A DNA stretch of 56,296 nt from Pseudomonadota bacterium (GTDB taxonomy: Bacteria; Pseudomonadota; Alphaproteobacteria; Micavibrionales; Micavibrionaceae), in contig CAUJHK010000068.1 in NCBI GenBank assembly GCA_963204715.1, forward strand, positions 1 through 56,296, written 5' to 3'. Position 1 is the stretch's first letter, and every line of letters starts with the position of its first letter. The position numbers and the translations under genes are program-made. Positions 523 through 38,763 of the stretch are shown here, piece after piece. A model generated the notes under the pieces. The model had not been told where the DNA came from. It worked only from the letters and a program-made list of their open reading frames with translations, and ran no database searches.

Positions 523-1737
523 ATGAAAACAAACACAAACTCCTATCGTTCTGGCCCCGATGAAAACGGGCATTTTGGCGCCTATGGCGGCCGCTATGTC
601 GCCGAAACCCTTATGCCCCTTATTCTGGACGTGGAAAAAGCATGGCATGCGGCGCGGGACGACGACGCTTTCTGGAAAGAGTTTCATGCTCTGGCCGCTG
701 ATTTTATAGGCCGCCCATCCCCGCTTTACTACGCCAAAAAGACGACAGAACATTTAGGCGGCGCAAAAGTCTATTTTAAACGGGACGAGCTAAACCACAC
801 AGGCGCGCACAAAATCAACCACTGCCTTGGGCAAATTCTGGTTGCCCGCCGTATGGGCAAAACCCGCATCATTGCAGAGACAGGCGCAGGCCAGCACGGC
901 GTGGCCACAGCCACCGTTTGCGCGCTGTTTGACCTTCCTTGTACCGTCTTTATGGGCGCAGAAGATGTCGAACGGCAAAAACCCAACGTATTCCGCATGA
1001 AATTGCTGGGCGCGGAAGTGATTCCCGTCACATCAGGATCATCCACCTTAAAGGATGCGATGAATGAAGCTTTGCGCTATTGGGTGGCCAATGTGCACGA
1101 CACCTACTACCTGATAGGCACCGTGGCAGGCCCGCACCCCTATCCTGAAATGGTGCGCGATTTCCAGTCTGTTATCGGGAATGAGCTGCGTGAACAGATG
1201 CGGCAAAAAGAAGGCCGCCTGCCAGATTCCCTTGTTGCCTGTATTGGCGGGGGGTCTAACGCCATGGGGCTGTTTCACCCGTTTTTGGATGATAGTGGCG
1301 TAAAAATGTATGGCGTGGAGGCTGGTGGCCATGGTGTGATGACCAACAAACACGCGGCCAGCCTGTCAGGTGGCAAACCCGGTGTGCTGCACGGGATGAA
1401 ATCCTACTTTTTGCAAAATGATGATGGGCAGATTACCGAAGCGCACTCTATTTCCGCAGGGTTGGACTACCCTGGTATCGGCCCCGAACATGCATGGCTT
1501 TATGATGAAAAACGGGTGGAGTATGTATCCGTGACTGATGATGAGGCTTTGGAAGCTTTCAAGCTTATGGCCAAGCTGGAAGGAATTATCCCCGCACTAG
1601 AGCCATCACACGCCTTTGCGCACGTTATAAAAACAGCCCCCTCTTTACCCAAAGACCATATCATGGTGATGAATTTGTGCGGGCGCGGGGATAAGGACAT
1701 CTTTACCGTTGCGGAGAAGTTAAATGTCACAATCTGA
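523..1737 (+). CDS. trpB: tryptophan synthase beta chain
   Basis: 404 aa with the [11 protein letters not shown]-lysine motif and GGGSNAMG. Full-length TrpB-like. Confidence 0.97.
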
Positions 1738-9018: not shown

Positions 9019-9047
9019 TTGACTTTTCTTTTCATATTCTATATTTT
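9019..9047 (+). promoter_or_regulatory. candidate promoter
   Basis: TTGACT (9019-9024), a 17-nt spacer, then TATTTT (9042-9047), upstream of ATG 9082. Confidence 0.3.
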
Positions 9048-9081
9048 CCCTGCAGGTTTTAACAAAAAGGGCTTAAGTATC

Positions 9082-10344
9082 ATGCGTAAAATTTCAACAT
9101 TACTGGGCGCGGCTGCAATTGGCGCTGTTACAACAACGGGAACAGGCGCGACAACCGTACAGCCCAGTTCTGGCCCGCTGGAATTTTTTGACCGCCTGAC
9201 ACACGAAACGATGCAAACACAAGGCAACTCACATCTAGGACAAATTCGCATTACGCCTGAAGCGAGCCACGCCGCAGGCGCGCCACAGGTTTATGCCGTG
9301 CGTGACGAAAACGACAACAAGCAATGTATCATCGGAAGCCATCTGGCGAAAAAATCTACCGCGTACTCGGCAGAGATTTTTGATACGATTGCACAATCTG
9401 GTAAACTTGATGCACTGAATAACGCCCAAGAGATCGATATTACCACGCTGACACGAAACGGTGCTTATGCATACCCCGCGAACACAACGCCAGAAGATGG
9501 TTTTTTCAGAGCCAACGCTGGCTTTGGTATTGATAAGGCGGTTGTTTTCGTTGATGGCAAAATGCTTGACCTAACAAACAGTGTTGAAAGCAGCCATTAC
9601 ACCACTAAGGCTCAAGGGGCTTTAAACGACACCATTCAGGCCGCTTATCTAGACGGAAAGTCCGTGACCTATGTTTATCTTTCAGACAACGGCCACACGG
9701 TTGTTGACACATTCAATATGGACAAGTCCGTTATTGCGACCTTTGACAAATGCCTTGAGACAATTGACGCCATCGCCATTCCACAAAACGATTATGTGAC
9801 GTTTGAATCCATTCCATACCCAAAAGCGACACCAGAAATCATTGCCCAGATTAAAGGCTCGCAATGTATCAGTGGCCTTAAGGACGAAGATGTTGTGGAT
9901 GTGCGCACAATTCAGTCCGTAACGGGGGCCATCCTCCCCTTTTCCTACAGCCTGATTTTAAAAAACGGGGATGAGGTTGTTTCAGACTTTTTCAAAAAGA
10001 CGGCCGATGGCAAAATGTATTTATCACAAAGCCTGACACAGTTTGCTGAACACAAAATATCGTCCTGCGCGGGCAACCTTCCTGTGGCCCAGCCGCCCCA
10101 GCTTTTGGCATCTCTTTTTCCATCCGTAACCAATTTTGCAACCGTAAGCTCGAATCCTTTGGGGCCCATTCTCACCACCACCCCTCCTTTGGGCGGTGGC
10201 GGCGGCGGTGGTGGCGGATGCAAAGATGATTGTGTCCCCGCGCCCGTTCCCCTACCTTTGGGTGGAGGTATGCTTTTGGGCGGACTTGGCATGCTTGGCG
10301 GAATCGTCCGACTTCGCAAGAAAGGCCCGTCACTGGATTTATAA
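9082..10344 (+). CDS. secreted protein of unknown function with poly-Gly tract and PEP-CTERM/VPLPA-CTERM-like C-terminal sorting tail
   Basis: The signal peptide MRKISTLLGAAAIGAV begins at ATG 9082; the ORF track start at 9019 adds an implausible extension. The C-terminus reads G9-CKDDC-VPAPVPLPLGGGMLLGGLGMLGGIVRLRKK, that is motif + short hydrophobic helix + basic cluster. Confidence 0.6.
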   Translation: MRKISTLLGAAAIGAVTTTGTGATTVQPSSGPLEFFDRLTHETMQTQGNSHLGQIRITPEASHAAGAPQVYAVRDENDNKQCIIGSHLAKKSTAYSAEIFDTIAQSGKLDALNNAQEIDITTLTRNGAYAYPANTTPEDGFFRANAGFGIDKAVVFVDGKMLDLTNSVESSHYTTKAQGALNDTIQAAYLDGKSVTYVYLSDNGHTVVDTFNMDKSVIATFDKCLETIDAIAIPQNDYVTFESIPYPKATPEIIAQIKGSQCISGLKDEDVVDVRTIQSVTGAILPFSYSLILKNGDEVVSDFFKKTADGKMYLSQSLTQFAEHKISSCAGNLPVAQPPQLLASLFPSVTNFATVSSNPLGPILTTTPPLGGGGGGGGGCKDDCVPAPVPLPLGGGMLLGGLGMLGGIVRLRKKGPSLDL

Positions 10345-10353
10345 AAATGCAAA

Positions 10354-10379
10354 AGCGGGCTTTAATGCCCGCTTTTTTG
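10354..10379 (+). terminator. rho-independent terminator
   Basis: AGCGGGC-tttaat-GCCCGCT hairpin followed by TTTTTT, 10 nt after the stop. Confidence 0.65.
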
Positions 10380-10440
10380 TGCTGGTTCTCCTATCGCAAA
10401 TCCCTCTTTGAGAGGGCATTCCTTTTAAAATGGTGGCTTT

Positions 10441-10470
10441 TAATTTTTCAAGCTTTGAGCCATAAATTCC
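10441..10470 (-). repeat. fourth, degenerate copy of the toxin-tail core repeat
   Basis: The 21-nt core taatttttcaagctttgagcc (10441-10461) also occurs at 11006-11026, 11543-11563 and 12121-12141. It encodes (I)YGSKLEKL on the minus strand. No membrane-protein gene follows this copy. Confidence 0.7.
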
Positions 10471-10596
10471 AGATAGGTTCACCGCCATAACATTCAAATG
10501 TAAAAAAACTGGAATCAGGACAAATTGCCCATTTGGTTATTTGAGTACAGATAAACGCCGCACCGCCCCAATACAAAAAATCAATAATTAAAATCA

Positions 10597-10941
10597 TTAC
10601 TGTGTAGACGAATGCCTGAAAAGCATATTCATATTTTTTTTATACCAATAGTAACCGACATATGCAGCAGACAAAATGATTAAAAAGTCAAAAACAAAAT
10701 CAGTCCCTTCATGAGCATACATAAAATATAACCATGGTAAGTCCAAGATGGATTCTTGTGCTTCAAAATAATCTATTTTGTTATCGGAAGCTTTTAGAAC
10801 ATAATAAAAGAACGCCAAAAACCCATAGGCATGAAGAGTGCACGCACAACAAAACGCGTAAACAGGCCAGAAAGCCCTGACCCATTGCCATGAAAAAGAC
10901 TGGTGATAATGTTCCCGCAAACTAGCGTATGTTATCTTCAT
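10597..10941 (-). CDS. small predicted 2-TM membrane protein, paralog A of a candidate immunity family
   Basis: 114 aa. It shares SF(S/T)..W(V/L)..FWP.Y with the 11050 and 11616 ORFs and has aromatic-rich hydrophobic segments. ATG start. Confidence 0.6.
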   Translation of the reverse strand: MKITYASLREHYHQSFSWQWVRAFWPVYAFCCACTLHAYGFLAFFYYVLKASDNKIDYFEAQESILDLPWLYFMYAHEGTDFVFDFLIILSAAYVGYYWYKKNMNMLFRHSSTQ

Positions 10942-11041
10942 TTACGCCATTCCATTGAAACTTATGGTCTTTGATTGTTCCGCGTTCAAGTGAAACCTCA
11001 CCGTCTAATTTTTCAAGCTTTGAGCCGTAGATACTTTTGCA
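10922..11041 (-). repeat. orphan copy of the toxin 3' tail (39 codons + TAG)
   Basis: Translates to CKSIYGSKLEKLDGEVSLERGTIKDHKFQWNGVNEDNIR*. The toxin end reads KPFKIYGSKLEKLNGEVSLERGTIEDHKFQWNSVSERNLR*. It begins right after the paralog B stop. Confidence 0.8.
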
Positions 11042-11049
11042 CAAAAAAA

Positions 11050-11520
11050 TCAATGACAGAAAGGCATTGTATCTGTTTGATTACAAATCGCGACTGTGCT
11101 TATAAATTCGTATAAGTCGTATGTAAATTTCCAGTTCAAAACAAACGAAACAAGCATTATAAAAATGTAACCTACGGACGAAAAAACATATTTATATTTC
11201 TTTAGAATTAAAAAATAGAGACAAAATAAACAAGACAGGGCAATAAAAAATAACATAGGCCAGCTAAATACAAAATCAAAATTATAAATAAATATATCTG
11301 GAAAAAAAGTTGGATCATCTTCATTGTCCGTTAAAAAATAATGAAGAAAAAACAGGAAAGAGAACCTTTCCAAAAAAAATACTATCCAATACAAATAGAC
11401 TGGCCAAAAATGTTTCAGCCAGTCCAGTGTAAAAGAGGCACGGAAGTCAGATGTTATTTTAGCGTGAATCTGTTTCCAAGATAGGATTCCACCTAAACTT
11501 TTGATCCTTAATTGTTCCAT
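11050..11520 (-). CDS. predicted 3-TM membrane protein, paralog B of a candidate immunity family
   Basis: Shares FRASFTLDWLKHFWPVYLYW with paralog C. I use ATG 11520; the ORF track uses GTG 11538, which lies inside the repeat. Confidence 0.6.
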   Translation of the reverse strand: MEQLRIKSLGGILSWKQIHAKITSDFRASFTLDWLKHFWPVYLYWIVFFLERFSFLFFLHYFLTDNEDDPTFFPDIFIYNFDFVFSWPMLFFIALSCLFCLYFLILKKYKYVFSSVGYIFIMLVSFVLNWKFTYDLYEFISTVAICNQTDTMPFCH

Positions 11521-11602
11521 GCTCAATAGAAACCTCACCGTTTAATTTTTCAAGTTTTGAGCCCTGCACTTCAAAAGGTTTTGAATTAGGAATGTTTCGT
11601 AA
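11459..11602 (-). repeat. orphan copy of the toxin 3' tail (47 codons + TAA)
   Basis: Translates to LRNIPNSKPFEVQGSKLEKLNGEVSIEHGTIKDQKFRWNPILETDSR*. The toxin reads LRYIPGSKPFKIYGSKLEKLNGEVSLERGTIEDHKFQWNSVSERNLR*. It is bounded upstream by an in-frame TGA. Confidence 0.8.
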
Positions 11603-11615
11603 TCATTCTATCCCA

Positions 11616-12116
11616 TCATGTTGGAAAAGCACACAAGAGGGGCCAGACAGGCAAATCTGGGCAGACCAGTCTTTGATTTATAAACATATATACCCATTTT
11701 GAACAAAAACTGAATAGTGGATAGCCAAAAAATATACCTGTAAAATACAGATATGTTTGTAATGCTTGGCTATGCTTTTTGATCATTAAATAATAGCCAA
11801 CTTGTAAAAACGCTAAACACATTAAAAAATATATCAATATTTCAACTTCAGGATAATCTCTGTTTTTTGATGTCCAGGCAAAAACCTGAGATTTTCGGTC
11901 ATACGGCTTAAGGTGTTCAAAAAAAACATGCATACCTATAAGCGTTTTCGTAATACACGCTATCCAAAACAAGTAGGCTGGCCAAAAATGTTTCAGCCAG
12001 CCCAGTGTAAAAGAGGCTTTAAAATTCGCTTTTATTCTATCGCAAATTTCTTTCCGAGACAGAATTCCATTGAAACTTATGGTCTTCGATTGTTCCGCGT
12101 TCAAGTGAAACCTCAC
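11616..12116 (-). CDS. predicted 3-TM membrane protein, paralog C of a candidate immunity family
   Basis: 166 aa as called from GTG 12116, overlapping the last 80 nt of the toxin gene in another frame. No ATG lies near the toxin stop, so the true start is uncertain. Confidence 0.55.
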   Translation of the reverse strand: MRFHLNAEQSKTISFNGILSRKEICDRIKANFKASFTLGWLKHFWPAYLFWIACITKTLIGMHVFFEHLKPYDRKSQVFAWTSKNRDYPEVEILIYFLMCLAFLQVGYYLMIKKHSQALQTYLYFTGIFFGYPLFSFCSKWVYMFINQRLVCPDLPVWPLLCAFPT

Positions 12117-12684
12117 CGTTTAATTTTTCAAGTTTTGAGCCATAAATCTTAAATGGTTTTGATCCTGGAATGTACCTAAGCGCACCTAAGACTTTATCAT
12201 CTTTGTTATAATCATACACATCGTTAAAGCGATGATCGACAAGGCCATCTACCAAAACCTTATCGCCTTTTCGTGTCGCCTTCAAGGAACCTGTGGAGCG
12301 AAATTTAACGCGGCCTATCCCCAAACCTTGATCCTCATCAAAATTACGCAACCCCTCGGTAGCGCCAATATCTTGATCCCAATAATCAACACCGCCATCA
12401 ACGGCGGGATTCTTTAAAACAATAGACTCCCCATCCCGCAAACGTAGGATTTGGTCTTTGAAGGGGTGTTTTAGTCCATTCACCTCACCTTTGACCATGC
12501 TGTCTTCAAACCGCTTTTTATTATCAGCCGTCATGTAGCCATGGGGTTCAGGGGCTTGGTTAAGGTCATAAAGACCAAAGTGGCTTAATATTTTTTTGAC
12601 GCGCATTACATCGTCTGGGTTGTTTGTACGGTTGTTGCCCACATCAGCCTTAAGGATGCGGGAAGTCTGGTCAGAATTGGCCAT
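12037..12684 (-). CDS. 215-aa toxin-like protein: N-terminal peptidoglycan-binding-like module and a C-terminal domain with a weak colicin-M-like motif (hypothetical)
   Basis: ATG 12684 is preceded by ACAGGAG with a 7-nt spacer; the ORF track start at 12732 lacks an SD. No signal peptide. It is followed by the three membrane-protein paralogs, and its tail is copied three more times. Confidence 0.6.
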   Translation of the reverse strand: MANSDQTSRILKADVGNNRTNNPDDVMRVKKILSHFGLYDLNQAPEPHGYMTADNKKRFEDSMVKGEVNGLKHPFKDQILRLRDGESIVLKNPAVDGGVDYWDQDIGATEGLRNFDEDQGLGIGRVKFRSTGSLKATRKGDKVLVDGLVDHRFNDVYDYNKDDKVLGALRYIPGSKPFKIYGSKLEKLNGEVSLERGTIEDHKFQWNSVSERNLR

Positions 12685-12711
12685 GAAAAACTCCTGTAAA
12701 AGTGAAGATTT

Positions 12712-12750
12712 AAAAAATGAAAAAGCGCCCACAAGACGGACTTGGGGCGC
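12712..12750 (-). promoter_or_regulatory. GC hairpin plus T-run in the leader of the toxin-like gene (attenuator, or terminator of the upstream gene)
   Basis: The minus strand reads GCGCCC-14 nt-GGGCGC followed by TTTTTCATTTTTT. It lies between the candidate promoter and the SD. Confidence 0.35.
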
Positions 12751-12762
12751 ATACAGTGGAAT

Positions 12763-12791
12763 ATAATCCTATATATTTATAAAATTGTCAA
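12763..12791 (-). promoter_or_regulatory. candidate sigma70-type promoter of the toxin-like gene
   Basis: On the minus strand: TTGACA (12791-12786), a 17-19 nt AT-rich spacer, then GATTAT/ATTATA/TTATAT. Confidence 0.3.
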
Positions 12792-12887: not shown

Positions 12888-13274
12888 CTAATAGACATGT
12901 TCATCCCTTTCTATTCTGAACAGCGCGTTTTCAACGGACACGCCGCGTTGATTAAGATGGTAAAAAATAGCGTTAAATTTACCGTCCTCGTCTTTTTCAT
13001 TCACCACGCGGTATAACACCCGCGCCTTGGTTTCATGGCCAAGTTGCATCAGCGTTTTGCGGCCGTTCAAAAGCGATATCAGGTTTATGACTTTCTTTTC
13101 TGACAGCATAAAATCTTCAGAGGAATCCAAAACCGTATAATCCCCCACGGGCACAGGCTCCCCCGCCATATCGTCCGCATATTTCAAAACCATAAAGCCG
13201 CGGGGGTGAACGGGGCTTTTGGCGTAGGTATATATGGGCGAGGCCGCCTCTTGGTTAAAATCATTTGTCTGCAT
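12888..13274 (-). CDS. hypothetical protein, 128 aa
   Basis: An ORF at housekeeping-like G+C with no motif I recognise. It is divergent from ahcY and on the same strand as the toxin array, upstream of it. Confidence 0.5.
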   Translation of the reverse strand: MQTNDFNQEAASPIYTYAKSPVHPRGFMVLKYADDMAGEPVPVGDYTVLDSSEDFMLSEKKVINLISLLNGRKTLMQLGHETKARVLYRVVNEKDEDGKFNAIFYHLNQRGVSVENALFRIERDEHVY

Positions 13275-31117: not shown

Positions 31118-31819
31118 ATGTGGCACAAACTTCTCTCGCTCTACCAACGGATTGCCGCCAAGCGGATGTTTTCGCGCTGGCATGAGAGCTATGAATTTGA
31201 TGTCATGGACAACCATTACAGCGCCGCAGATAGGGTTGCACAGGCCGCCATACGGCACATAGCCGCCTCTACACGAAATGGCGCAAAGGGCTTTATGGAA
31301 GAGCCAGATATCGCCGACATTGGCATTGGTACGGGGCTTTTGGCGCAGCAACTGCAAGAATCCCTTCCCTGCCGCATCACAGGGCTGGATTTTACCGACG
31401 ATATGATGACCATTTGCGCCCAGAAAGGCGTGGCCGAGTTGCTAATAAAATGCGATGCAGGGCGCGACCATTGGCCCATACAGGGTGCGACCATGGACAT
31501 GGTGGTCAGCGCGGGGCTGTTTGAATATTTAACCAAGCCCATGGCGCAGCATTTTTTGAAAGAGGCGGTACGCGTTTTACAAGACGATGGAATTTTGGTC
31601 TTTACCTATATGCCGCGTGATGAAAGCGGTAAAGCCGTGGAGTTATGGCGCGGCCATTCTGGCACATTCGTCGTTTGTTCCTACACGCCAAAAGAGATGG
31701 AAGAGATGCTTTTAAAATGCGGGCTAAAACTGCTGGATCATTCCGCCCCATTCAAGGGCAGCCTCTATGAAGACGGGTCTTCTTACGATTACCGCCTAAT
31801 TGCCGTCAAAAGGATTTAG
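31118..31819 (+). CDS. class I SAM-dependent methyltransferase
   Basis: Motif I IADIGIGTGLL and a post-I acidic residue (GLDFTDDM). The start is uncertain. Confidence 0.7.
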   Translation: MWHKLLSLYQRIAAKRMFSRWHESYEFDVMDNHYSAADRVAQAAIRHIAASTRNGAKGFMEEPDIADIGIGTGLLAQQLQESLPCRITGLDFTDDMMTICAQKGVAELLIKCDAGRDHWPIQGATMDMVVSAGLFEYLTKPMAQHFLKEAVRVLQDDGILVFTYMPRDESGKAVELWRGHSGTFVVCSYTPKEMEEMLLKCGLKLLDHSAPFKGSLYEDGSSYDYRLIAVKRI

Positions 31820-33273
31820 CGTTCGTTCATTGAGGAATCAAGCGTTTTAACAAACGGTTTCAAAATATATTCCATCACGGTTTTTTCGCCCGTCAAAATA
31901 TCAACCGTTGCCACCATTCCTGGGATGATGGGCAGCACTTCGCCTTTACGTTTTAGCGCGTTTTCTTGCGTAATGACGCGGACATGATAAAAGCTTTCGC
32001 CTTTTTCATCCGTCACGGCATCAGGCGATATCCCCACAACCTTGCCCTTTAGCCCCCCGTAAATAGAAAAATCATAGGCACTGATTTTGACCATCGCAGG
32101 CTGATCGGGATAAAGGAAAGCAATGTCTTTTGGCTTGATACGAACTTCAACCAAAAGCTGATCATCCTTGGGCACAATCTCAATAAAATCTTGCCCTGGC
32201 TGAACAACGCCGCCAACCGTATAAACCTTTAAATCTTTAATATAGCCATTCACGGGAGATTTAATCTCCGTGCGGTCTTTTTTATCTTCAAGCCCCACAA
32301 GACCTTTTTCAATAGAGCTCATCTCACTTGTTTTGGCGGAAAGTTCCATTTGTGATGTTGCGCGGGCAGAAGATTCAACATCACGAATGCGGGCTTCCGC
32401 TTCAGCAATGGCTGATCTTGCGCGTGGCATGGCGGCGTTTACGCTGTTTAGCTCTGTTTGTTTTTCTTTAACGGTGCGCTCTATTTGCAAGAGTTCCATC
32501 TTGGGCGCAGAACCTCTTGCAACAAGTGGCTCTACCATTGATTTTTCTTCATGTGCCAAGGAGAGCTGCCCGTTTAAATCACTGGATTTTATTTGAAGCT
32601 CGCTCAACTCTTGCGCCCGTTGTGATTTTTGCTGTTGTAGAATAATAGTCTGTCCATTGATTTTGTCCACATTGGCACGGTACGCAGCCATTTCTTCTGT
32701 TACCGCCTGTGGTGCTTTTTCCATGACATCAGCAGGAAACTCTGGGACTCTTCCTTCCACCTCCGCCTGCAGCCTTGCAATGGCTGCTTTTAAACCCAAA
32801 AGGCGGGCTTCGTTTGAGCCATAATCCGCGCTCGCCCCCACATCACGAAGGCGTACAACAATTTGCCCCGCCGTAACTTCATCGCCCTCTTTGACAAGAA
32901 TTTCATCTATAATTCCGCCTTCCAGAGAAGAAAGCTTTTGTATCTCTTTAGAGGGAATAACCTTTCCTTCTCCGCGCGTTGTCACTTCCAACTGTGCAAA
33001 ACTTGCCCAGACAAAAAACAAAAAAAAGAACGAACACACGGCAAACATAATAATATGTTTTGAGAGCGGTAAGTCTTCATCTGTTGCCAGAACACGATCA
33101 GCATGAGCTGCTGCTTTTTGCAGCTGGGCCTTCATCCACCCTTGACGTGCCTTATTAATGTTCTCATCTAACGTGGTTTGCTTGCCCCCATTTTTTTTGG
33201 CCATTTGGGCCTGCAAAAGTTTTGCAAGATTGGGGTCTTTTCCTTCAACGGTCCGAATCGGCTTTTGTGACAT
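31816..33273 (-). CDS. type I secretion membrane fusion protein (HlyD family)
   Basis: From ATG 33273, 4 nt after the ABC stop. One N-terminal TM segment, a long coiled-coil and C-terminal beta-barrel motifs (I.SPV.G.I....V.T.GGVV.PG). Confidence 0.9.
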   Translation of the reverse strand: MSQKPIRTVEGKDPNLAKLLQAQMAKKNGGKQTTLDENINKARQGWMKAQLQKAAAHADRVLATDEDLPLSKHIIMFAVCSFFFLFFVWASFAQLEVTTRGEGKVIPSKEIQKLSSLEGGIIDEILVKEGDEVTAGQIVVRLRDVGASADYGSNEARLLGLKAAIARLQAEVEGRVPEFPADVMEKAPQAVTEEMAAYRANVDKINGQTIILQQQKSQRAQELSELQIKSSDLNGQLSLAHEEKSMVEPLVARGSAPKMELLQIERTVKEKQTELNSVNAAMPRARSAIAEAEARIRDVESSARATSQMELSAKTSEMSSIEKGLVGLEDKKDRTEIKSPVNGYIKDLKVYTVGGVVQPGQDFIEIVPKDDQLLVEVRIKPKDIAFLYPDQPAMVKISAYDFSIYGGLKGKVVGISPDAVTDEKGESFYHVRVITQENALKRKGEVLPIIPGMVATVDILTGEKTVMEYILKPFVKTLDSSMNER

Positions 33274-33277
33274 GATG

Positions 33278-35578
33278 CTACACTTCCGTTTCTTCTGCGG
33301 CAGTGCCGTATTGGCGCGCCTGAAGTTTTTTAATGATTTCGTCTTTGGGGCCGTAGGCAACAATACGGCCACGATCAATCAATATAATTTTATCAACAAG
33401 GGTAAGCATTGTGCCTTTGTGCGTAATCAAAATGGTTGTGCGCCCTTGCGTAACAACCTGCAGACGTTTTAAAAGCCTGTTTTCAGAGGCAGGGTCCATT
33501 GAGGCTGTCGGCTCATCGAATATCATCACAGGCGGATCATACAAAAGTGCGCGGGCAATGGCGACCGATTGACGCTGGCCACCTGACAAAGACTCACCGC
33601 GCTCACCCACATTGGTGTCTAGGCCAGCTTGTGAATCACGCAAAAACTCGGTAACACCCGCAAGCTCGGCGGCGCGCATTACAGCGCGGTCTGGCGCCGT
33701 TTCATGCCCCATGGTAATGTTGGTGCGCACAGAGCCATAAAATAATTGCGGACTTTGCTGAACAGCGCCAACATTGCGGCGCAAATCACCAGGGTCAATC
33801 TGCCTGACGTCAGTACCATCAAGCTGCACAGAACCAGTCTGTGGCTGGTACAAATTTATCAGCAGCCTTTCAAGTGTTGTTTTACCTGACCCCACTGCGC
33901 CTATAACGCCCACATGTTCCCCTGGTTCAATAACAAAGTTAACAGCTTTTAGGGCAGGAACAGATTGTTCAGGATAGCTGAATGTCACATCCTGAAATTC
34001 AACCTTGCCCTGAATTGAGGGCATGGAAATAAAATGTTTTCCCGTGGGGCGCTCAACAGGGCGTTTCATAAGCTCGTTGAGTTGTTTTAGACCCTCTTTT
34101 GATTGGTGAAGGCGTGTTAAAAGAGCGGCGACCTGTGACAACGGTGCCATGGCGCGTCCCGTTAAAATAACACATGCAATAAGCGCGCCCATAGACAGTT
34201 TGGCGTTGGCAATAAGAAAAACGCCCACCACCACTACCACAACACTGGCAAGCTGTTGAACAAACGTTGCAAGATTTAAGGCAAGAGAGCTTATGTGTTT
34301 TGATTTGGCAGATGTTTTGGCAGCTTTTTCGGTCAGCTCTTCCCAATTTCTTTGGGTATGTCCTTCTGCGGCCTGCACCTTGATGGTTTCAAGGCCTGAA
34401 ATAGTTTCAAACAGCAAGGCATTTTTAAGCGCGCTTTCCATCATGGACTGTTTGGTCACGCGTTCCAGAGGTTTTTGCATGACCACCCCAATCAACACCA
34501 CAAGGGGGACAGCGACAAATGGCACAAAAGCAACAGGGCCGCCGACAATAGCTATCAAAACTATAAACAAAGCCACAAATGGCAGATCAATCAACACTGT
34601 CATGGTTGCGGAAGTAAAGAAATCCCTCAAAGATTCAAACTCCCGCATGTGCGATGCCATAACGCCCGCACTGGCAGGGCGTGAAGCCATGGTCATGCCC
34701 ATTAACTGTTGGAAAAGACGGGCGGATATTTTTATATCGGCTTTTTTACCTGCGTGATCCAAAAAGGTTGCACGCAGGTTTTTTAAAATGAGATCAAAAA
34801 TATAAACAACACTAACCCCCAAGGACAAAACCCACAAAGTTTCATAGGCGTTGTTTGGAATAACCCTGTCATACACGTTCATAACAAAGAGCGATGATAC
34901 GATAGCGAAAATATTGATCATCACTGCGGCTATTATGACCTCAGAATAAATGGACTTATTCTCCCATAAAGCAGACCAGAACCATTCTTTGCCTGTTTCA
35001 ATTTCGGCTGGACCTGCACGCTCATCCACGCGCGCCACAGGCCGAATAAAAAAGGCGTAGCCCGTGTATGATTTTTTTAGATCAGATATTTTAAGAACCT
35101 GCTTTTCGTCCTCCGTTTCAGGAAACTGGACAACAAATTCTGTTTCTGGATGAATCTTGCGCTTTCCATCACCTTTGGCCCCACGCTTTGCGCCAGGCTC
35201 CCTCACCTCCCATAAAATGCACGCCAGCTTATTTTCCAGCGTCAGCACGCAAGGAAGGTTTGGTGCTATGGCCAATGCTTCAAGGCTACGCTCGGCCAAT
35301 CTTGCATGCAGGCTCGCACGCTCGGCTGCCCTTGCATAAAGAAGGGGGGTGATGCCACTGGGCGGTACTGGCAGGCCCGCCGTTAAAGAAGCGACAGATG
35401 TGCGGCGGCCGTAGTAGCCCGCCAAGATACGCAAAACATCCACGAGAGGGTCTTGTATAGCAACCCTGTCGGCTTCAAGCGGCCATGAATCAAAAGCCTC
35501 TTGTCCCGCTTTTTTACTTTGAGAATCAAAGGCGGGCGCAGAGTTTGCGCCCGTCATGTTTTGGTCGTTGTTATCCAC
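33278..35578 (-). CDS. type I secretion ABC transporter ATPase/permease with an N-terminal C39-like domain lacking the catalytic Cys
   Basis: 766 aa. Six TM segments, Walker A GAVGSGKTT, signature LSGGQRQ, Walker B MIFDEPTASMD. In the N-terminal ~150 aa, DPL replaces the peptidase D-C-G position. Confidence 0.92.
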   Translation of the reverse strand: MDNNDQNMTGANSAPAFDSQSKKAGQEAFDSWPLEADRVAIQDPLVDVLRILAGYYGRRTSVASLTAGLPVPPSGITPLLYARAAERASLHARLAERSLEALAIAPNLPCVLTLENKLACILWEVREPGAKRGAKGDGKRKIHPETEFVVQFPETEDEKQVLKISDLKKSYTGYAFFIRPVARVDERAGPAEIETGKEWFWSALWENKSIYSEVIIAAVMINIFAIVSSLFVMNVYDRVIPNNAYETLWVLSLGVSVVYIFDLILKNLRATFLDHAGKKADIKISARLFQQLMGMTMASRPASAGVMASHMREFESLRDFFTSATMTVLIDLPFVALFIVLIAIVGGPVAFVPFVAVPLVVLIGVVMQKPLERVTKQSMMESALKNALLFETISGLETIKVQAAEGHTQRNWEELTEKAAKTSAKSKHISSLALNLATFVQQLASVVVVVVGVFLIANAKLSMGALIACVILTGRAMAPLSQVAALLTRLHQSKEGLKQLNELMKRPVERPTGKHFISMPSIQGKVEFQDVTFSYPEQSVPALKAVNFVIEPGEHVGVIGAVGSGKTTLERLLINLYQPQTGSVQLDGTDVRQIDPGDLRRNVGAVQQSPQLFYGSVRTNITMGHETAPDRAVMRAAELAGVTEFLRDSQAGLDTNVGERGESLSGGQRQSVAIARALLYDPPVMIFDEPTASMDPASENRLLKRLQVVTQGRTTILITHKGTMLTLVDKIILIDRGRIVAYGPKDEIIKKLQARQYGTAAEETEV

Positions 35579-35612
35579 AGATGAACCCTTTGCAAAGGTT
35601 TGTAGGAGAAGC

Positions 35613-36986
35613 TTACTTTTCGACTTGTTTGTTTTTTACGTCGATAAGGCCTGTTTCTTCAGGATATGCCACACCCAGTGTTGAGAGCAGTTGACCCTTT
35701 AGAGCCAGAAGACGATAAACCGCAAAAATTTCTAAAAACTCTGCATTGATGGTGTTTGAACGGGACACAAACAATTCATTTTGTGAGTCCAGAACGTCCA
35801 ATAATGTACGGCGATCCAGGTTAAACTGGTCTTTGTACGCGCGTACAACCTCACCATTTGCAGCCGCCTGATTTCCAAATTCCTTGGCGCGCTCTCCAGA
35901 TGAAACCATTGACGCCCAGGTTTGGCGCACGTCATTTTCAATTTGACGGGCGGCCGATGCGCGCTCTTCTTTTGTTTGCTGATGACGGTGCTTGAATTCA
36001 CGCACGCGGGCAACGTCGCCGCCACCACGATACAAATTCCAGTTCATCACAACCAAAGCAGAGGCATTGTTAATCTCACCGTCTGAACCGCCAATGTCCT
36101 TACCATGTGATCCACCTAGCTGAAGATCAAACTTCGGGTAAAGGCTGGAGCCTGTGCCCTTATATTCATTATAGGCAACCTCAACGTCAGATTCGCGAAC
36201 ACTTAAAGTCGGGCTTTGCGCCAAAGCTGTTTTCACTTCAGCCTCAACATCAGCCGCTACTGCATTTACAGGAACTGCTGGCATTACTAGGTCTTTTGGC
36301 ATGTCGCCAACTTCTTGCTGGAATTTTGATTCCGCATTGCGAAGCTGTTCACGGACAGAGGATTCTTGTGCACGCGCAGAGGACAAACGCGCCTTGATTT
36401 GTTCAAGGTCAGCGGATGTAGAGCGGCCTGCATTCACGCCTTCTTCTATCATACCCATAATGGCCACATGTTCCGCCACGTTATCACGTGTGATAGAAAG
36501 CAATTCACGCTGGCGCATCACTTCCAGGAATGACTCAACGATGGACAGACCAGTGAATTCCGATGTTTCGCGTACGCGGTTGGCAGAAGACTGAACGCGA
36601 TTTTTCTGGCGTTCATTTTCATACTTTGTACCCCAACCATCGAACAGCATTTGTGTCAATGTCAGTTGCGTGTTGTAGCGTGTAAATGTTTTATCATCAT
36701 CGCCCGTGGCACGTGTGGATGGACTGTCTGTTCTTTCAAAGCCACCATCAGCACGCAAATCAATGGAAGGGAGGTACAGTGCCTTGGCTTGATTCAGCTC
36801 TTCGTCTGTTGCGCGGCGAGAGGCGGCCACGCGTCCATATTCAGGATTTGTCATGACACCAACAGAAACAGCCTGTCCCAAGCCCATTTCAGTGGGTTTT
36901 TGCTGCGCCAAAGCAAGGGAAGCGGGCATTGTGGAGAGTGAACCTGCTAATAGCAGCGCGGCAAATTTAAATTTTATGTTTTTCAT
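35613..36986 (-). CDS. tolC: TolC-family outer membrane channel of the type I secretion system
   Basis: From ATG 36986 the signal peptide reads MKNIKFKFAALLLAGSLSTMPASLALA. Two-fold repeated TolC-like helical/beta pattern, about 457 aa. Confidence 0.88.
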   Translation of the reverse strand: MKNIKFKFAALLLAGSLSTMPASLALAQQKPTEMGLGQAVSVGVMTNPEYGRVAASRRATDEELNQAKALYLPSIDLRADGGFERTDSPSTRATGDDDKTFTRYNTQLTLTQMLFDGWGTKYENERQKNRVQSSANRVRETSEFTGLSIVESFLEVMRQRELLSITRDNVAEHVAIMGMIEEGVNAGRSTSADLEQIKARLSSARAQESSVREQLRNAESKFQQEVGDMPKDLVMPAVPVNAVAADVEAEVKTALAQSPTLSVRESDVEVAYNEYKGTGSSLYPKFDLQLGGSHGKDIGGSDGEINNASALVVMNWNLYRGGGDVARVREFKHRHQQTKEERASAARQIENDVRQTWASMVSSGERAKEFGNQAAANGEVVRAYKDQFNLDRRTLLDVLDSQNELFVSRSNTINAEFLEIFAVYRLLALKGQLLSTLGVAYPEETGLIDVKNKQVEK

Positions 36987-37110
36987 CGTTGTACCTTTTT
37001 GGATATCATGCAAAATCAATGACTTTAGCCTGTTATTTATGGCCTTTTTTAGCGCGTGGCGCAAGTATTCGTTATGGTTATTTTTTGAAAAATTAAGTTC
37101 CGTAATATGA

Positions 37111-37140
37111 AAAAATGACGCGAGAATATACCTCGCGCCA
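37111..37140 (-). terminator. hairpin terminator after the LysM gene
   Basis: The minus strand reads GCGAGG-7 nt-CTCGCG followed by TCATTTTTT. Confidence 0.4.
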
Positions 37141-37150
37141 TTTTGAAAAA

Positions 37151-38563
37151 TTAAGCAATGTTAAAACCTAAAGCAGAAGGTGTTCTTACCATCGTCACCT
37201 TCTCTGAACGCTCGGGTGTTTCTGTGCCGCCCGTTGGGTGGTCGGTTTCTCCTGTTCCTTCCGATGGATGTTCAGTTTCGCCGCCACCTGGATTCTCCGT
37301 CCCTTCGTGGTTTGTCTCACCAGTGCCGCCGCCTGTTTCGCCGCCGTTATTGTCGCCTGGTCCTGGGGGATTGTGATCACCGCCACCGTTTTCACCGTCA
37401 ACATCTGGGTTGGGGCTACCGCCACCTCCGTCAGTACCACAGTGTTCTTTGCAGCCTCCTGTAGGAGGATCTACTGGCGGTGGCTCAACTGGAGGAGTGC
37501 GCGGTGTTGCCTCATGGTCTCCGCCTGTGTCACACTGGTTTTTAGGGTTACCCCAAACGGTTTTAATAACAATTTTTCCATTTTCCATTACCAGCTTTAC
37601 TCTGCTGAAAGGCTGGTCTGCACAACCACAGCGTTCTTCAAACTTTTTGGCCAGAGGTATGGAGTAAAGCCTGTTACCAGATTTCACCAACTCGCACTGC
37701 TTGGGCATTGTTACGACTGGTGTAGAAACGCTTGGTGTATTAACTGTTTGCACAGGTTTGTGAACAATACGACGCGTTCCTGTGCAGTAGTCTTTGTATA
37801 GTTTGTCTTCTTTTTTATTAAGTTCTCCGACATCCGTTAAATCAAGCGTTTGGCCAGCGCTTAATTCATACGGCGCTCCCAAAGCTGGATTGTGTGCAAC
37901 AATTCCATCAAATGATTTGTTTTCCGCGCGCACCACATCACACAAGCCATCTCCCGACTTCACTTCATATGTGTTTGTGGCTGCAGGAGGCGTTGCGGCA
38001 GGAGCAGCCGCTACAACAGGTTTTGCCTTGGGAACAGGAGAAGATGTTAAACCCTGTGGCGCCACAACAGCCGCTTGTTCAGGCGCGCATGTTTCACACT
38101 TTTGCCCTTCTTGAAAGGCTTCCAGCTTTTCCTGTGCCATAAGTGCCTTTACATCCGCCGTCAGATCAGCATGTTCAGCTTCAACCTCCTGTGCCCAGTA
38201 TTCCAGCTTTGATTTATCGTCACATGGTTCTGCGGCAGGCGCTTCTGCCGTTGTTGCTGCAACCATAACAACGTTTTCTATAGTTTTTGGTATAACAAAA
38301 ACTTGACCCACTTTAATCGTGTCCACATTTTTGATTAAATCTGCATTCGCGTCCTGAATTTTTTCTGGCGTTGTCTGGATATCCAGTTTTGCCAGTTTGA
38401 GAACAATTTTCGAAAGACTGTCACCAGACTGAACCGTTATAGTCCCTTTGTCCTTATCAATTTTGGCCGCCTCGGCCTGCTCGGCTGTTGCAAAAAGTCC
38501 AGCCATGGCGACCACTGCAGACGCCGCGATATAACGTAATTTTTGTGTGAGTTTTCCAAACAT
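37151..38563 (-). CDS. secreted protein with two LysM domains and a Pro- then Gly/Glu/Thr-rich low-complexity C-terminal region
   Basis: From ATG 38563: a signal/anchor (YIAASAVVAMAGLFATAEQAEA), LysM 1 (ITVQSGDSLSKIV...VGQVFVIP) and LysM 2 (YEVKSGDGLCDVV...SAGQTLDL). The tail reads PPVEPPPVDPPTGGCKEHCGTDGGGG... Confidence 0.7.
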   Translation of the reverse strand: MFGKLTQKLRYIAASAVVAMAGLFATAEQAEAAKIDKDKGTITVQSGDSLSKIVLKLAKLDIQTTPEKIQDANADLIKNVDTIKVGQVFVIPKTIENVVMVAATTAEAPAAEPCDDKSKLEYWAQEVEAEHADLTADVKALMAQEKLEAFQEGQKCETCAPEQAAVVAPQGLTSSPVPKAKPVVAAAPAATPPAATNTYEVKSGDGLCDVVRAENKSFDGIVAHNPALGAPYELSAGQTLDLTDVGELNKKEDKLYKDYCTGTRRIVHKPVQTVNTPSVSTPVVTMPKQCELVKSGNRLYSIPLAKKFEERCGCADQPFSRVKLVMENGKIVIKTVWGNPKNQCDTGGDHEATPRTPPVEPPPVDPPTGGCKEHCGTDGGGGSPNPDVDGENGGGDHNPPGPGDNNGGETGGGTGETNHEGTENPGGGETEHPSEGTGETDHPTGGTETPERSEKVTMVRTPSALGFNIA

Positions 38564-38634
38564 GTTCGTAAATTCCTCTCGTGATTTCACTCTTCAGGCA
38601 CGTTATGCTTAACAATATGTAAACATTTGGTGCA

Positions 38635-38663
38635 TTTATATGACTCTTGGCAAAAAATTGCAA
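38635..38663 (-). promoter_or_regulatory. candidate promoter of the LysM gene
   Basis: On the minus strand: TTGCAA (38663-38658), a 17-nt spacer, then TATAAA (38640-38635). Confidence 0.3.
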
Positions 38664-38718
38664 GGTTTTTATTGAAAACAACGGTCAAAAATTATGGTTC
38701 TACCCAAACCTGCTGGCA

Positions 38719-38749
38719 ATAAAAAACGGGGTAAAAACCCCGTTTTTTC
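38719..38749 (-). terminator. rho-independent terminator of the RTX adhesin gene
   Basis: AACGGGG-taaaaa-CCCCGTT with A/T runs on both sides, 15 nt after the stop. Confidence 0.6.
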
Positions 38750-38763
38750 AAATTGTTATAAAG

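Follow-up and report, generated by a model that had tools for sequence, protein, structure and literature searches.

A putative polymorphic toxin/immunity island with orphan immunity genes and a possibly ColM-like toxin domain in an uncultured alphaproteobacterium

Genes, tails, and regulatory elements of the island

The window, by which we mean the entire 56,296-nt stretch of DNA that was analyzed, carries an island between ahcY and rapZ of an uncultured alphaproteobacterium. The array is compact (~2.4 kb), and the ORF of a putative toxin, three genes for putative immunity proteins (C, B, and A), and all copies of the toxin 3' end (tails) lie on the minus strand. The features are as follows.

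12763..12791, minus strand: sigma-70-like promoter (TTGACA and GATTAT with 17 nt between them) ahead of the toxin gene, a consensus match only (10/12)
12725..12750, minus strand: leader hairpin with a U-run after it, located past the promoter-like site and ahead of the start codon of the toxin
12037..12684, minus strand: 215-aa putative toxin gene lacking 73 codons, assigned by alignments with homologues P0002 and P0003 and by family and ColM-like profile matches
11616..12116, minus strand: immunity-like gene C, predicted cognate of the resident toxin; listed start GTG 12116
11459..11602, minus strand: orphan type-B tail of 47 codons and a stop, sharing 93% identity with the 3' end of the intact allele of locus L002
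11050..11538, minus strand: orphan immunity-like gene B, assigned in part from P0004; possible starts GTG 11538, TTG 11526, and ATG 11520
10922..11041, minus strand: orphan type-A tail of 39 codons and a stop, sharing 94% identity with the resident toxin tail over 84 nt
10597..10941, minus strand: orphan immunity-like gene A, encoding 114 aa with two hydrophobic helices
10385..10470, minus strand: degenerate remnant of a fourth tail (GIYGSKLEKLK...), not followed by an immunity gene
10351..10376, minus strand: terminator-like hairpin closing the array, common to a convergent 441-aa gene

The G+C content is 0.328 at positions 11001-12000 and 0.369 across the island (10380-12790), compared to 0.479 for the entire window. 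A 21-nt core, TAATTTTTCAAGYTTTGAGCC, has exactly four copies (10441, 11006, 11543, and 12121), with an expectation of 0 from 100 shuffles. An 84-nt repeat family lies at 12064-12147, 11486-11569, and 10949-11032 with identities of 79-94%, and a 29-nt repeat family occupies four sites, one of which is 10439-10467. A preliminary description of this DNA had reported the ORFs, three tail peptides each ending in a stop, the four cores, and an AT-rich block, and every detail checked holds: the peptides are exact on translation, the core positions are exact, and the composition is as described. It had also taken C, B, and A for three paralogous membrane proteins with a shared signature. This is borne out, as the paralogs are 25-33% identical to C, share SF(T/S)..W...FWP.Y, and each have 2-3 hydrophobic segments in a Kyte-Doolittle scan.

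The promoter block is conserved in a related locus, L001, where an equivalent leader hairpin is stronger (z = -6.1) and differs in its inner stem sequence. An Rfam search of the block returns only a sub-threshold sRNA match, which sits on the closing terminator-like hairpin. Another terminator-like hairpin, within the conserved WLKHFWP codons of the immunity genes, was rejected as an element and is taken as a side effect of coding, because divergent relatives do not keep it and covariation lends it no net support.

Gene C and the toxin ORF share 66-80 nt, read in different frames, and the likelier start of C is TTG 12104, six bases past an SD-like GGTGAGG (12117-12111). Gene B encodes three hydrophobic helices and a C-terminal CX9C. 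In gene A, the third helix and the Cys pair are absent, the ATG comes directly after the stop codon (taaATG) of a short reading frame that lies upstream, and an orthologue from another sample (P0007) is also 114 aa. Within every tail lie an SD-like GGTGAGG and the codon at which the next, overlapping immunity gene starts, which gives the tails a direct functional reason to be kept. An even more degenerate tail remnant is found at the end of the L001 array.

Across the immunity family, FWPxY precedes the first helix, and the protein usually ends in a CX7-9C tail that would be periplasmic. An overlapping gene for an FWPxY membrane protein directly follows the toxin gene in the window, L001, L004, L007, L008, and L009, and this pairing is kept in the distant relatives L007, L008, and L009. 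We infer that each downstream protein of 2-3 helices is an inner-membrane protein that protects against the toxin encoded before it. The family is found only in these toxin/immunity loci; it has no match in Pfam, NCBIfam, or PADLOC, and kinship to described families is undetectable. More broadly, nothing meaningful emerges when the toxin, the three paralogs, and the neighbors are scanned against Pfam, NCBIfam, and PADLOC. Housekeeping genes surround the locus and phage genes are absent nearby in 6/6 loci examined (the window, L001, L007, L008, L009, and the P0011 locus). No secretion system tied to the locus was seen. A T1SS lies ~20 kb from the locus and accompanies an RTX adhesin.

A deleted resident toxin and variation among related strains

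The intact alleles P0002 and P0003 are 288 aa long and match PF01471 (PG_binding_1). In the protein alignment, the window allele is without residues 55-127 of P0002, with the deletion junction between 12523 and 12522. Judged from these homologues, the 215-aa gene derives, by in-frame loss of 73 codons, from the gene of a predicted 288-aa toxin consisting of PG_binding_1 and a ColM-like domain. The deletion removes part of the PG_binding_1 domain and a conserved HYLxGxG segment, and the resident toxin is therefore probably inactive in this genome, leaving a locus that probably now serves mainly to provide immunity. The deletion allele was seen on one contig only, so a small chance of an assembly error remains; the junction has no long repeat able to explain such an error.

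The scaffold had been described as very small and neither Rhs nor CdiA. The second part stands: no CDI or Rhs scaffold features are present, and the toxin proteins (215-288 aa) have no Pfam match besides PG_binding_1 and lack a large scaffold, filamentous or of YD repeats, bearing the demarcation motif VENN or PxxxxDPxGL. The smallness does not, since the allele is an internally deleted form of a 288-aa protein. By inspection, the toxin has no signal peptide or N-terminal hydrophobic signal, and the protein alignment has no ETxxV-type TonB box. No known secretion or translocation domain was seen in the toxin.

The window is 98.7% identical to L002 at the nucleotide level over 223 nt (the promoter and 54 codons) and then 66.1% identical over the C-terminal domain. 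L002 carries the intact 288-aa allele P0003, and the 73-codon loss lies exactly where the toxin sequence switches between allele types. The tail before gene B shares 93.0% identity with the L002 3' end vs 77% with the resident toxin tail, and it also matches the toxin 3' end of L004. In L004, the primary module consists of a B-type toxin and a B-type immunity gene, with a remnant besides; orthologues of the B-type immunity gene occur in both L001 and L004. L001 and L003, at the same ahcY-rapZ site, have a toxin and two immunity genes, L005 shows the B-tail-A order of the window, and L006 has a further immunity type with remnants on both sides. Module number and order vary among the window, L001, L004, L005, and L006; copy number and tail content differ across genomes as the preliminary description would have it, and a fixed single-copy arrangement was not seen.

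More distantly, the toxin of L007 is 37% identical to the C-terminal domain of the window protein, and L007 is the single relative, a distant one, among GTDB species genomes. Scans of JGI metagenomes with the toxin and immunity alignments and a scan of IMG/VR found no relatives, and tblastn against phage genomes and plasmids found none.

The C-terminal domain and the reading of the locus

The C-terminal domain, ~200 aa in the 288-aa toxin, belongs to an unnamed family of 257 clusters (E<=1e-3), nearly all without cluster names. It lies at or within ~30 residues of the C-terminus in all full-length matches but one. The N-terminal domains of 98 members are PG_binding_1 (43-49), Phage_Mu_F (9-10), and PKD/Ig (1), the others being unassigned; MuF bearers make up ~10% of the wider family, and PG_binding_1 and MuF also occur in combination. 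Three Pfam scans of 30 long members missed the MuF bearers, one of which, P0024, surfaced by chance.

The toxin family had seemed unplaceable by eye and can now be placed in part, as PG_binding_1 followed by a remotely ColM-like domain, while the immunity family stays unmatched. Alignment of the family profile with the ColM family profile (hhalign) gives a probability of 78.6% and an E value of 1.7e-5 over 136-142 collinear columns. The score is 39.0, compared to a maximum of 26.3 for 150 column shuffles and 13.2 for the reversed profile. HMM-to-sequence matches to ColM reach only E ~0.01 in both directions. The HYLxGxG and DxYDF motifs align with A132-G141 and D226/Y228/D229 of ColM, and DxYD is conserved as D in 93/98, Y in 91/98, and D in 89/98 members. 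In ColM, D226, Y228, and D229 are essential, as are H235 and R236, and the minimal active domain is residues 122-271, with the HYLWGNG segment included (PMC8469651). The DxYD of the DxYD(x5)HR signature (PMC8469651, PMC5821083) is kept among the 98 members, and the HR is absent: the H235/R236 positions are not conserved, and R211 and H224 are conserved upstream instead. PF14859 (Colicin_M) matches neither the window protein (E<=1) nor any of the 98 members (E<=10).

Of the remote-homology checks, only the profile-profile comparison points to ColM; Foldseek and Pfam do not. With an AF2 toxin model of pLDDT 91.8, Foldseek finds no ColM structure (2XMX, 4G75, 4FZM, and 4N58 were sought) among the best 50 PDB matches, and no match of any kind reaches E<=0.001. 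The PG_binding_1 part alone is matched in PDB and BFVD, with phage lysozymes and muramidases as the best BFVD structural matches to the N-terminus. A phmmer search of PDB with the toxin returned nothing. NTF2-like Foldseek matches were discarded because they came from a first AF2 model of low quality (pLDDT 53.7), for which the alignment had 3 sequences. Taken from the profiles and motifs, the domain is probably a distant relative of the ColM catalytic domain, and ColM-like chemistry, that is, lipid II hydrolysis, is slightly favored.

The same architecture could instead carry an unrelated new fold directed at another envelope target, with convergence or chance at two motifs producing the likeness to ColM. 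Such a domain would explain why no Foldseek neighbor appears in PDB or BFVD despite the confident model, why PF14859 is unmatched, why half of the signature is missing, and why the hhalign probability stays <80%. Against it, the profile alignment is collinear over nearly the whole ColM catalytic domain and far above the shuffle controls, three ColM-essential residues align with positions conserved in ~90% or more of the family, and a PG-binding domain together with membrane immunity proteins suits a periplasmic lipid-linked target; we consider a new fold unlikely, while giving it real weight. PG_binding_1 followed by a catalytic domain is also a common endolysin layout, and the phage-type N-terminal matches, the MuF fragment in some members, and small partners with 2-3 membrane helices resembling holins would fit a lysis cassette of a phage or gene transfer agent. 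We regard this as very improbable: no known muralytic catalytic domain is matched in Pfam, BFVD, or phage genomes, the C-terminal domain is unmatched in 50,697 phage genomes and in BFVD, the six examined loci lie amid housekeeping genes, and such cassettes do not show strain-level C-terminal swapping or a row of three divergent membrane paralogs accompanied by toxin tails.

The origin of the array bears on what the tails are. If an immunity gene with its embedded start had been duplicated in tandem in place, the tails would be by-products and not remnants of displaced toxins. A working duplicate would have to carry a tail because the SD-like site and start are embedded in it, as seen in all tails, and the 94% identity of the A tail to the resident tail fits this. 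However, the B tail resembles the intact allele of L002 more than it does the resident toxin, the B-type module is a primary toxin/immunity pair in L004, and the paralogs are merely 25-33% identical as proteins while orthologous modules recur across strains, which makes in-place duplication improbable.

The traits of polymorphic toxins in the sense of Zhang et al. 2012 (PMC3482391) that are found here are a conserved N-terminus with a C-terminus variable among relatives, the same C-terminal domain on different N-terminal architectures, a small fast-evolving downstream gene that co-varies with the toxin domain (the candidate immunity gene), and standalone toxin-end/immunity cassettes matching intact toxins elsewhere. 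A recognizable trafficking domain is not found, as neither the window protein nor P0002 has one in Pfam. The proposal of the preliminary description, a polymorphic toxin locus with orphan CT/immunity modules, gains support from the conserved N-terminus, the variable C-terminus, the orphan matches, the strain variation, and the pairing, and we judge it likely. The island would then be a small, strain-variable bacterial warfare locus in which the gene of a cell-wall-directed toxin is accompanied by one gene for membrane immunity and by two spares. We assign a probability of about 0.7 to the whole explanation, namely a polymorphic island with a disarmed ColM-like toxin, its cognate immunity gene, and two orphans.

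In this polymorphic-island model, the intact 288-aa toxin would combine N-terminal PG_binding_1 with the ~200-aa C-terminal domain and, because this family is probably related to ColM, would have its site of action in the periplasm, either cleaving lipid II or hitting a nearby envelope target. Each toxin type would be followed by an overlapping gene for an inner-membrane immunity protein of 2-3 helices, and the last 40-47 codons of the toxin would double as the SD-like site and start of that gene. Recombination would install a new toxin/immunity module, and the displaced module could survive as a tail plus immunity gene because the tail carries the SD-like site and start. The window would represent one resident module (C), two orphans (B and A), and a bare tail remnant, the orphans presumably coming from earlier variants of the toxin. 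A bolder version, which we find rather doubtful, is an undescribed alphaproteobacterial family of envelope toxins released without a known secretion domain, whose immunity cassettes are shuffled via a dual-use junction of 40-50 codons that would at once form the last toxin beta-hairpin, supply the RBS and start, and offer homology for recombination.

What is new is the finding of the 73-codon deletion, the unnamed domain family with its predicted relation to ColM, and the tails carrying the SD-like site and start of the immunity gene. If true, the model extends ColM-like lipid II toxins to Alphaproteobacteria on a PG-binding scaffold and brings a new family of multi-helix immunity proteins to a class of toxins in which immunity is still mechanistically unsolved. 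A scaffold without a TonB box or receptor domain would also raise the question of how the toxin exits the producer and enters the target. The locus would be a compact example of orphan immunity gene retention in which the toxin 3' end holds the start of the next gene, and a genome seemingly without the weapon and with three shields would illustrate an outcome that arms races between toxins and immunity are predicted to reach, being 'disarmed but immune'.

Comparison with known systems

ColM-family bacteriocins (ColM/Cmi, pyocin M/PmiA, and burkhocin M1/BmiA) likewise place a C-terminal catalytic domain on differing N-terminal parts (PMC5821083, PMC8469651), and HYLxGxG and DxYDF fall in the same linear order here as in ColM. 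ColM-type immunity proteins are multi-helix, with 4 helices in PmiA, 3 in BmiA, and 6 in PmiC (PMC5821083); here, the immunity gene is also directly downstream, its 2-3 membrane helices recall the three-helix BmiA, and the conserved cysteine pair has counterparts in Cmi, BmiB, and PmiB (PMC5821083). Unlike these bacteriocins, the present family lacks a PF14859 match, the HR of the signature, and a Foldseek match to ColM structures, and has PG_binding_1 (sometimes with MuF) in place of a TonB box or receptor-binding domain. Its host is alphaproteobacterial and not gamma- or betaproteobacterial, its immunity family is detectably kin to no described family, and it forms orphan tail/immunity arrays, while the word 'orphan' is absent from the cited ColM-bacteriocin perspective. 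T6EC1, a T6SS effector with periplasmic toxicity, is ColM-like by Foldseek only (bioRxiv 10.1101/2023.03.26.534264). Both are sequence-orphan toxins linked to ColM by remote methods only, but Foldseek succeeded there where sequence methods failed, whereas profile-profile comparison supports the link here and Foldseek does not. In addition, the present locus has no T6SS association.

MuF polymorphic toxins of temperate phages were reportedly described by Jamet et al. in 2017. About 10% of the present family has Phage_Mu_F N-terminal to the same toxin domain, whereas the window protein and its close relatives are without MuF. In L009, the single MuF-bearing locus examined, the MuF part is a short fragment and phage genes are absent from the surroundings. 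The trafficking domains of toxins listed in PMC3482391 and PMC12419801 include MuF.

The layout itself is already known in kind; the toxin domain and immunity families are both undescribed. A general framework is given in PMC3482391. CDI and Rhs loci were reportedly found by Poole et al. in 2011 and Koskiniemi et al. in 2014 to have orphan cdiA-CT/cdiI and rhs-CT/rhsI modules lying downstream. The present array follows the same order, with a full toxin gene and its immunity gene followed by 5'-truncated toxin ends that each have an immunity gene; the orphans match intact toxins elsewhere, and the block is AT-rich. Unlike those loci, the scaffold here is 288 aa without TPS, VENN, YD-repeat, or PAAR, and the retained toxin piece is 10-47 codons and not the full toxin domain, so an orphan could not regenerate a toxin via simple upstream recombination. 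A further difference is that the piece retained here is also the translation-initiation region of the immunity gene.

Layout of the locus and its variation among strains

The 215-aa ORF and the three membrane-protein paralogs reported in the preliminary description are present on the minus strand. The immunity-like genes C, B, and A share the signature SF(T/S)..W...FWP.Y, each encodes 2-3 hydrophobic segments, and B and A show 25-33% identity to C.

Features of the toxin/immunity block (window coordinates)
12791-12763, minus strand: promoter-like site at the start of the array
12684-12037, minus strand: resident toxin ORF, 215 aa
12116-11616, minus strand: immunity-like gene C, 3' of the toxin ORF
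11538-11050, minus strand: immunity-like gene B
10941-10597, minus strand: immunity-like gene A
10376-10351, minus strand: terminator-like hairpin at the end of the array, after the bare fourth tail remnant

The repeat finder returned an 84-nt family (12064-12147, 11486-11569, and 10949-11032; 79-94% identity) and a 29-nt family that includes the fourth copy at 10439-10467. On translation, all three tail peptides agree exactly with those given before, and the 21-nt core, for which four positions had been claimed, occurs at precisely these four, with none expected by chance. The block is AT-rich, as had been proposed, with a GC content of 0.33 in 11-12 kb and 0.37 in the island versus 0.48 in the whole window.

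The related loci L001 and L003 occupy the same site, with the order ahcY, toxin, immunity genes, rapZ, chvG, and chvI, and there an intact toxin of 288 aa precedes two immunity paralogs, the second of which has a shortened tail in front of it. In L004, the primary pair is of type B in both its toxin 3' half and its immunity gene, and a short remnant follows it. The B, tail, A arrangement of the window recurs in L005 at 98.6% identity, and in L006 a further immunity type has a remnant on either side. Strains therefore differ in how many modules they carry, in module order, and in which module is the primary one. The orphan tail that precedes B in the window matches the 3' end of the intact L002 toxin gene at 93.0% identity, but the resident toxin's own tail at only 77%. 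The interpretation as a polymorphic toxin locus with orphan immunity modules, a known kind, thus holds at the sequence level, since modules vary by strain and the B tail fits the intact L002 allele. A fixed arrangement, or an immunity family common away from toxin-like genes, had been named as evidence against this interpretation; the arrangement is variable, and the immunity family was found in these toxin loci only.

Housekeeping genes surround all six loci examined (the window, L001, the distant relatives' loci L007, L008, and L009, and the P0011 locus), and no adjacent phage or secretion genes were found at any of them. No signal peptide was seen in the toxins by inspection. A type 1 secretion set (T1SS; ABC transporter, TolC-like OEP, and a probable membrane-fusion gene) lies at about 31.8-37.1 kb on the minus strand, adjoining a 1374-aa RTX/DUF5801/cadherin-like adhesin (region 31816-42888, minus strand); it is ~20 kb from the toxin locus and appears unrelated to it.

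Several further elements were observed around the array. A GC-rich hairpin with a U-run (12725-12750, minus strand; U-run to about 12712) sits downstream of the promoter-like site and upstream of the toxin start codon and has an equivalent in L001 (5152-5190) with a different inner stem sequence (z = -2.5 in the window and -6.1 in L001); it may act as a leader attenuator or may be a terminator left behind. A 128-aa ORF without a family match (12888-13274, minus strand), between the toxin promoter and ahcY, is missing from the syntenic L001 and may therefore be part of the island. A 441-aa protein (9019-10344, plus strand) has an eight-glycine run, a C-terminal VPLPLGG...hydrophobic...RLRKK tail, and a weak PEP-CTERM-type match (NF038126, E 0.038); a homologue borders the array in L004 as well (995-1528, minus strand), and not in L001.

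Dual use of the toxin tail

A conserved tail block (GGCTCAAAACTTGAAAAATTAAACGGTGAGGTTTCACTTGAA on the coding strand) is the same in all ten modules compared. Its translation in the toxin frame is GSKLEKLNGEVSLE, which belongs to the last beta-hairpin in the predicted model, and in the +1 frame it presents an SD-like GGTGAGG, six bases, and a TTG (12104 for C and 11526 for B). The GTG starts listed for C and B also fall inside the block. In module A, the +1 frame reaches a TAA directly abutting the ATG at 10941 (taaATG), which suggests that gene A is translationally coupled via a 15-codon upstream ORF. This small ORF (10941-11015, minus strand) is in the frame that starts C and B. Overlaps between the toxin 3' end and the immunity 5' end measure 38 nt in L007 and 47 nt in both L008 and L009.

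Read from its sequence, the tail block serves both as the toxin C-terminus and as the immunity-gene start region, and this dual use is new. The putative start sites are TTG 12104 for C, either TTG 11526 or ATG 11520 for B, and ATG 10941 for A. Because the SD-like site and the start codon lie inside the block, an immunity gene would be translatable only with the toxin tail kept.

Inside immunity genes C and B, the codons of the conserved WLKHFWP motif fold into a terminator-like hairpin of 14 pairs followed by a T-rich tail (12004-11974 and 11426-11396, minus strand). A single change appears compensatory (Gly/Ala to Asp/Val), the covariation term is unfavourable, and the pairing is disrupted in A, L008, and L009.

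The deletion allele of the resident toxin

Only two close homologues of the 215-aa toxin, P0002 and P0003, were found among 5.8 billion clusters, each with 288 aa and a PG_binding_1 (PF01471) match. Alignment with P0002 shows an in-frame loss of its residues 55-127 from the window protein (73 residues, a 219-nt deletion), comprising the second half of the peptidoglycan-binding domain, a linker, and the beginning of the C-terminal domain, and PG_binding_1 is no longer detected in the window protein by Pfam scan. With L002, the locus encoding P0003, the window shares 98.7% identity over 223 nt (leader and codons 1-54) and 66.1% past the junction. The 215-aa gene thus reads as a deletion derivative of the 288-aa toxin, with a junction that, given this fall in identity, coincides with a mosaic breakpoint. 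Because microhomology at the junction is no more than GAT-scale, a repeat-driven assembly error is unlikely, although the same cluster search placed the allele on a single contig, this one.

The minimal active domain of colicin M (ColM), set by truncation, covers residues 122-271 and contains the HYLWGNG segment (PMC8469651). Because the deletion takes out the counterpart of this segment, the window allele is probably inactive. A toxin probably disarmed through deletion at a recombination breakpoint, with its inactivity predicted, is new.

The toxin and immunity families compared with colicin M

The C-terminal domain profile matched 257 clusters at E<=1e-3 among 1.84 billion representatives, in proteins of ~200-650 aa, and with one exception among full-length matches the domain lies at, or within ~30 residues of, the C-terminus. 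Across the 98 members scanned, N-terminal domains were PG_binding_1 (43-49), Phage_Mu_F (9-10), and PKD/Ig (1), with many N-termini unassigned, and no Pfam model covered the C-terminal domain. The MuF-bearing relatives are a hint that delivery is particle-associated in some lineages. Near-invariant residues (P0002 numbering) are G197, R211, G220, H224, D228, Y230, D231, F232, and W279, and an (H/R)(Y/F)LxGxG segment is conserved at 99-105. The AlphaFold model from the 98-sequence alignment is confident (pLDDT 91.8) and consists of helices followed by four long antiparallel strands. P0024 (L009 762-1889), in a non-phage context, combines a PG_binding-like N-terminus and a short MuF fragment having an NCRC motif with the same toxin domain.

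Ten immunity members from six loci share an FWPxY motif, with invariant P and Y, directly ahead of the first hydrophobic helix and a basic KK(Y/H) patch past the second; a C-terminal CX7-9C occurs in seven of them. From the Lys/Arg-rich N-terminal stretch and the three helices, the positive-inside rule would place the N-terminus in the cytoplasm and the Cys-pair tail in the periplasm. With 114 aa and two helices, A is shorter and lacks the Cys pair; its length is conserved in another sample (P0007). The family is undescribed, and its immunity role is putative. The membrane immunity proteins known for ColM-type toxins are unrelated and have 1, 3, 4, or 6 helices; conserved cysteine pairs occur in some of them, and the mechanism of these proteins is unknown in the literature (PMC5821083).

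The toxin family consensus, L.HYL.G.G ... G..kl.S.G.f.ATR.GD.I.I.G.V.H...D.YDFN ... AKPF ... G.I.I, resembles ALAHYLWGNG and DKYDFNASTHR of ColM. By hhalign, the family profile matched the single ColM sequence (which agrees with PDB 2XMX except for one residue) with a probability of 57-66% (E 5.7e-5 to 1.1e-4) and a 27-sequence ColM profile with 78.6% (E 1.7e-5), over 136-142 collinear columns (ColM residues ~126-266). The real score of 39.0 compares with a maximum of 26.3 in 150 column shuffles and 13.2 for the reversed profile. Family D228, Y230, and D231 align with ColM D226, Y228, and D229, three residues that lipid II hydrolysis requires (PMC8469651). Against this profile support, none of the 98 members scanned matched PF14859 (Colicin_M), their alignment contains no conserved counterpart of H235 or R236, which are essential in ColM, and ColM structures were absent from the best 50 Foldseek matches. 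HMM-to-sequence comparison gave E ~0.01 in either direction, and hmmsearch of the PDB reached pyocin M (4G75) at E 0.22 only. On this balance, the family is not assigned to PF14859, and we put the probability that the toxin domain works like ColM, a predicted function, at slightly better than even (about 0.55). The toxin domain family is undescribed and probably distantly ColM-like.
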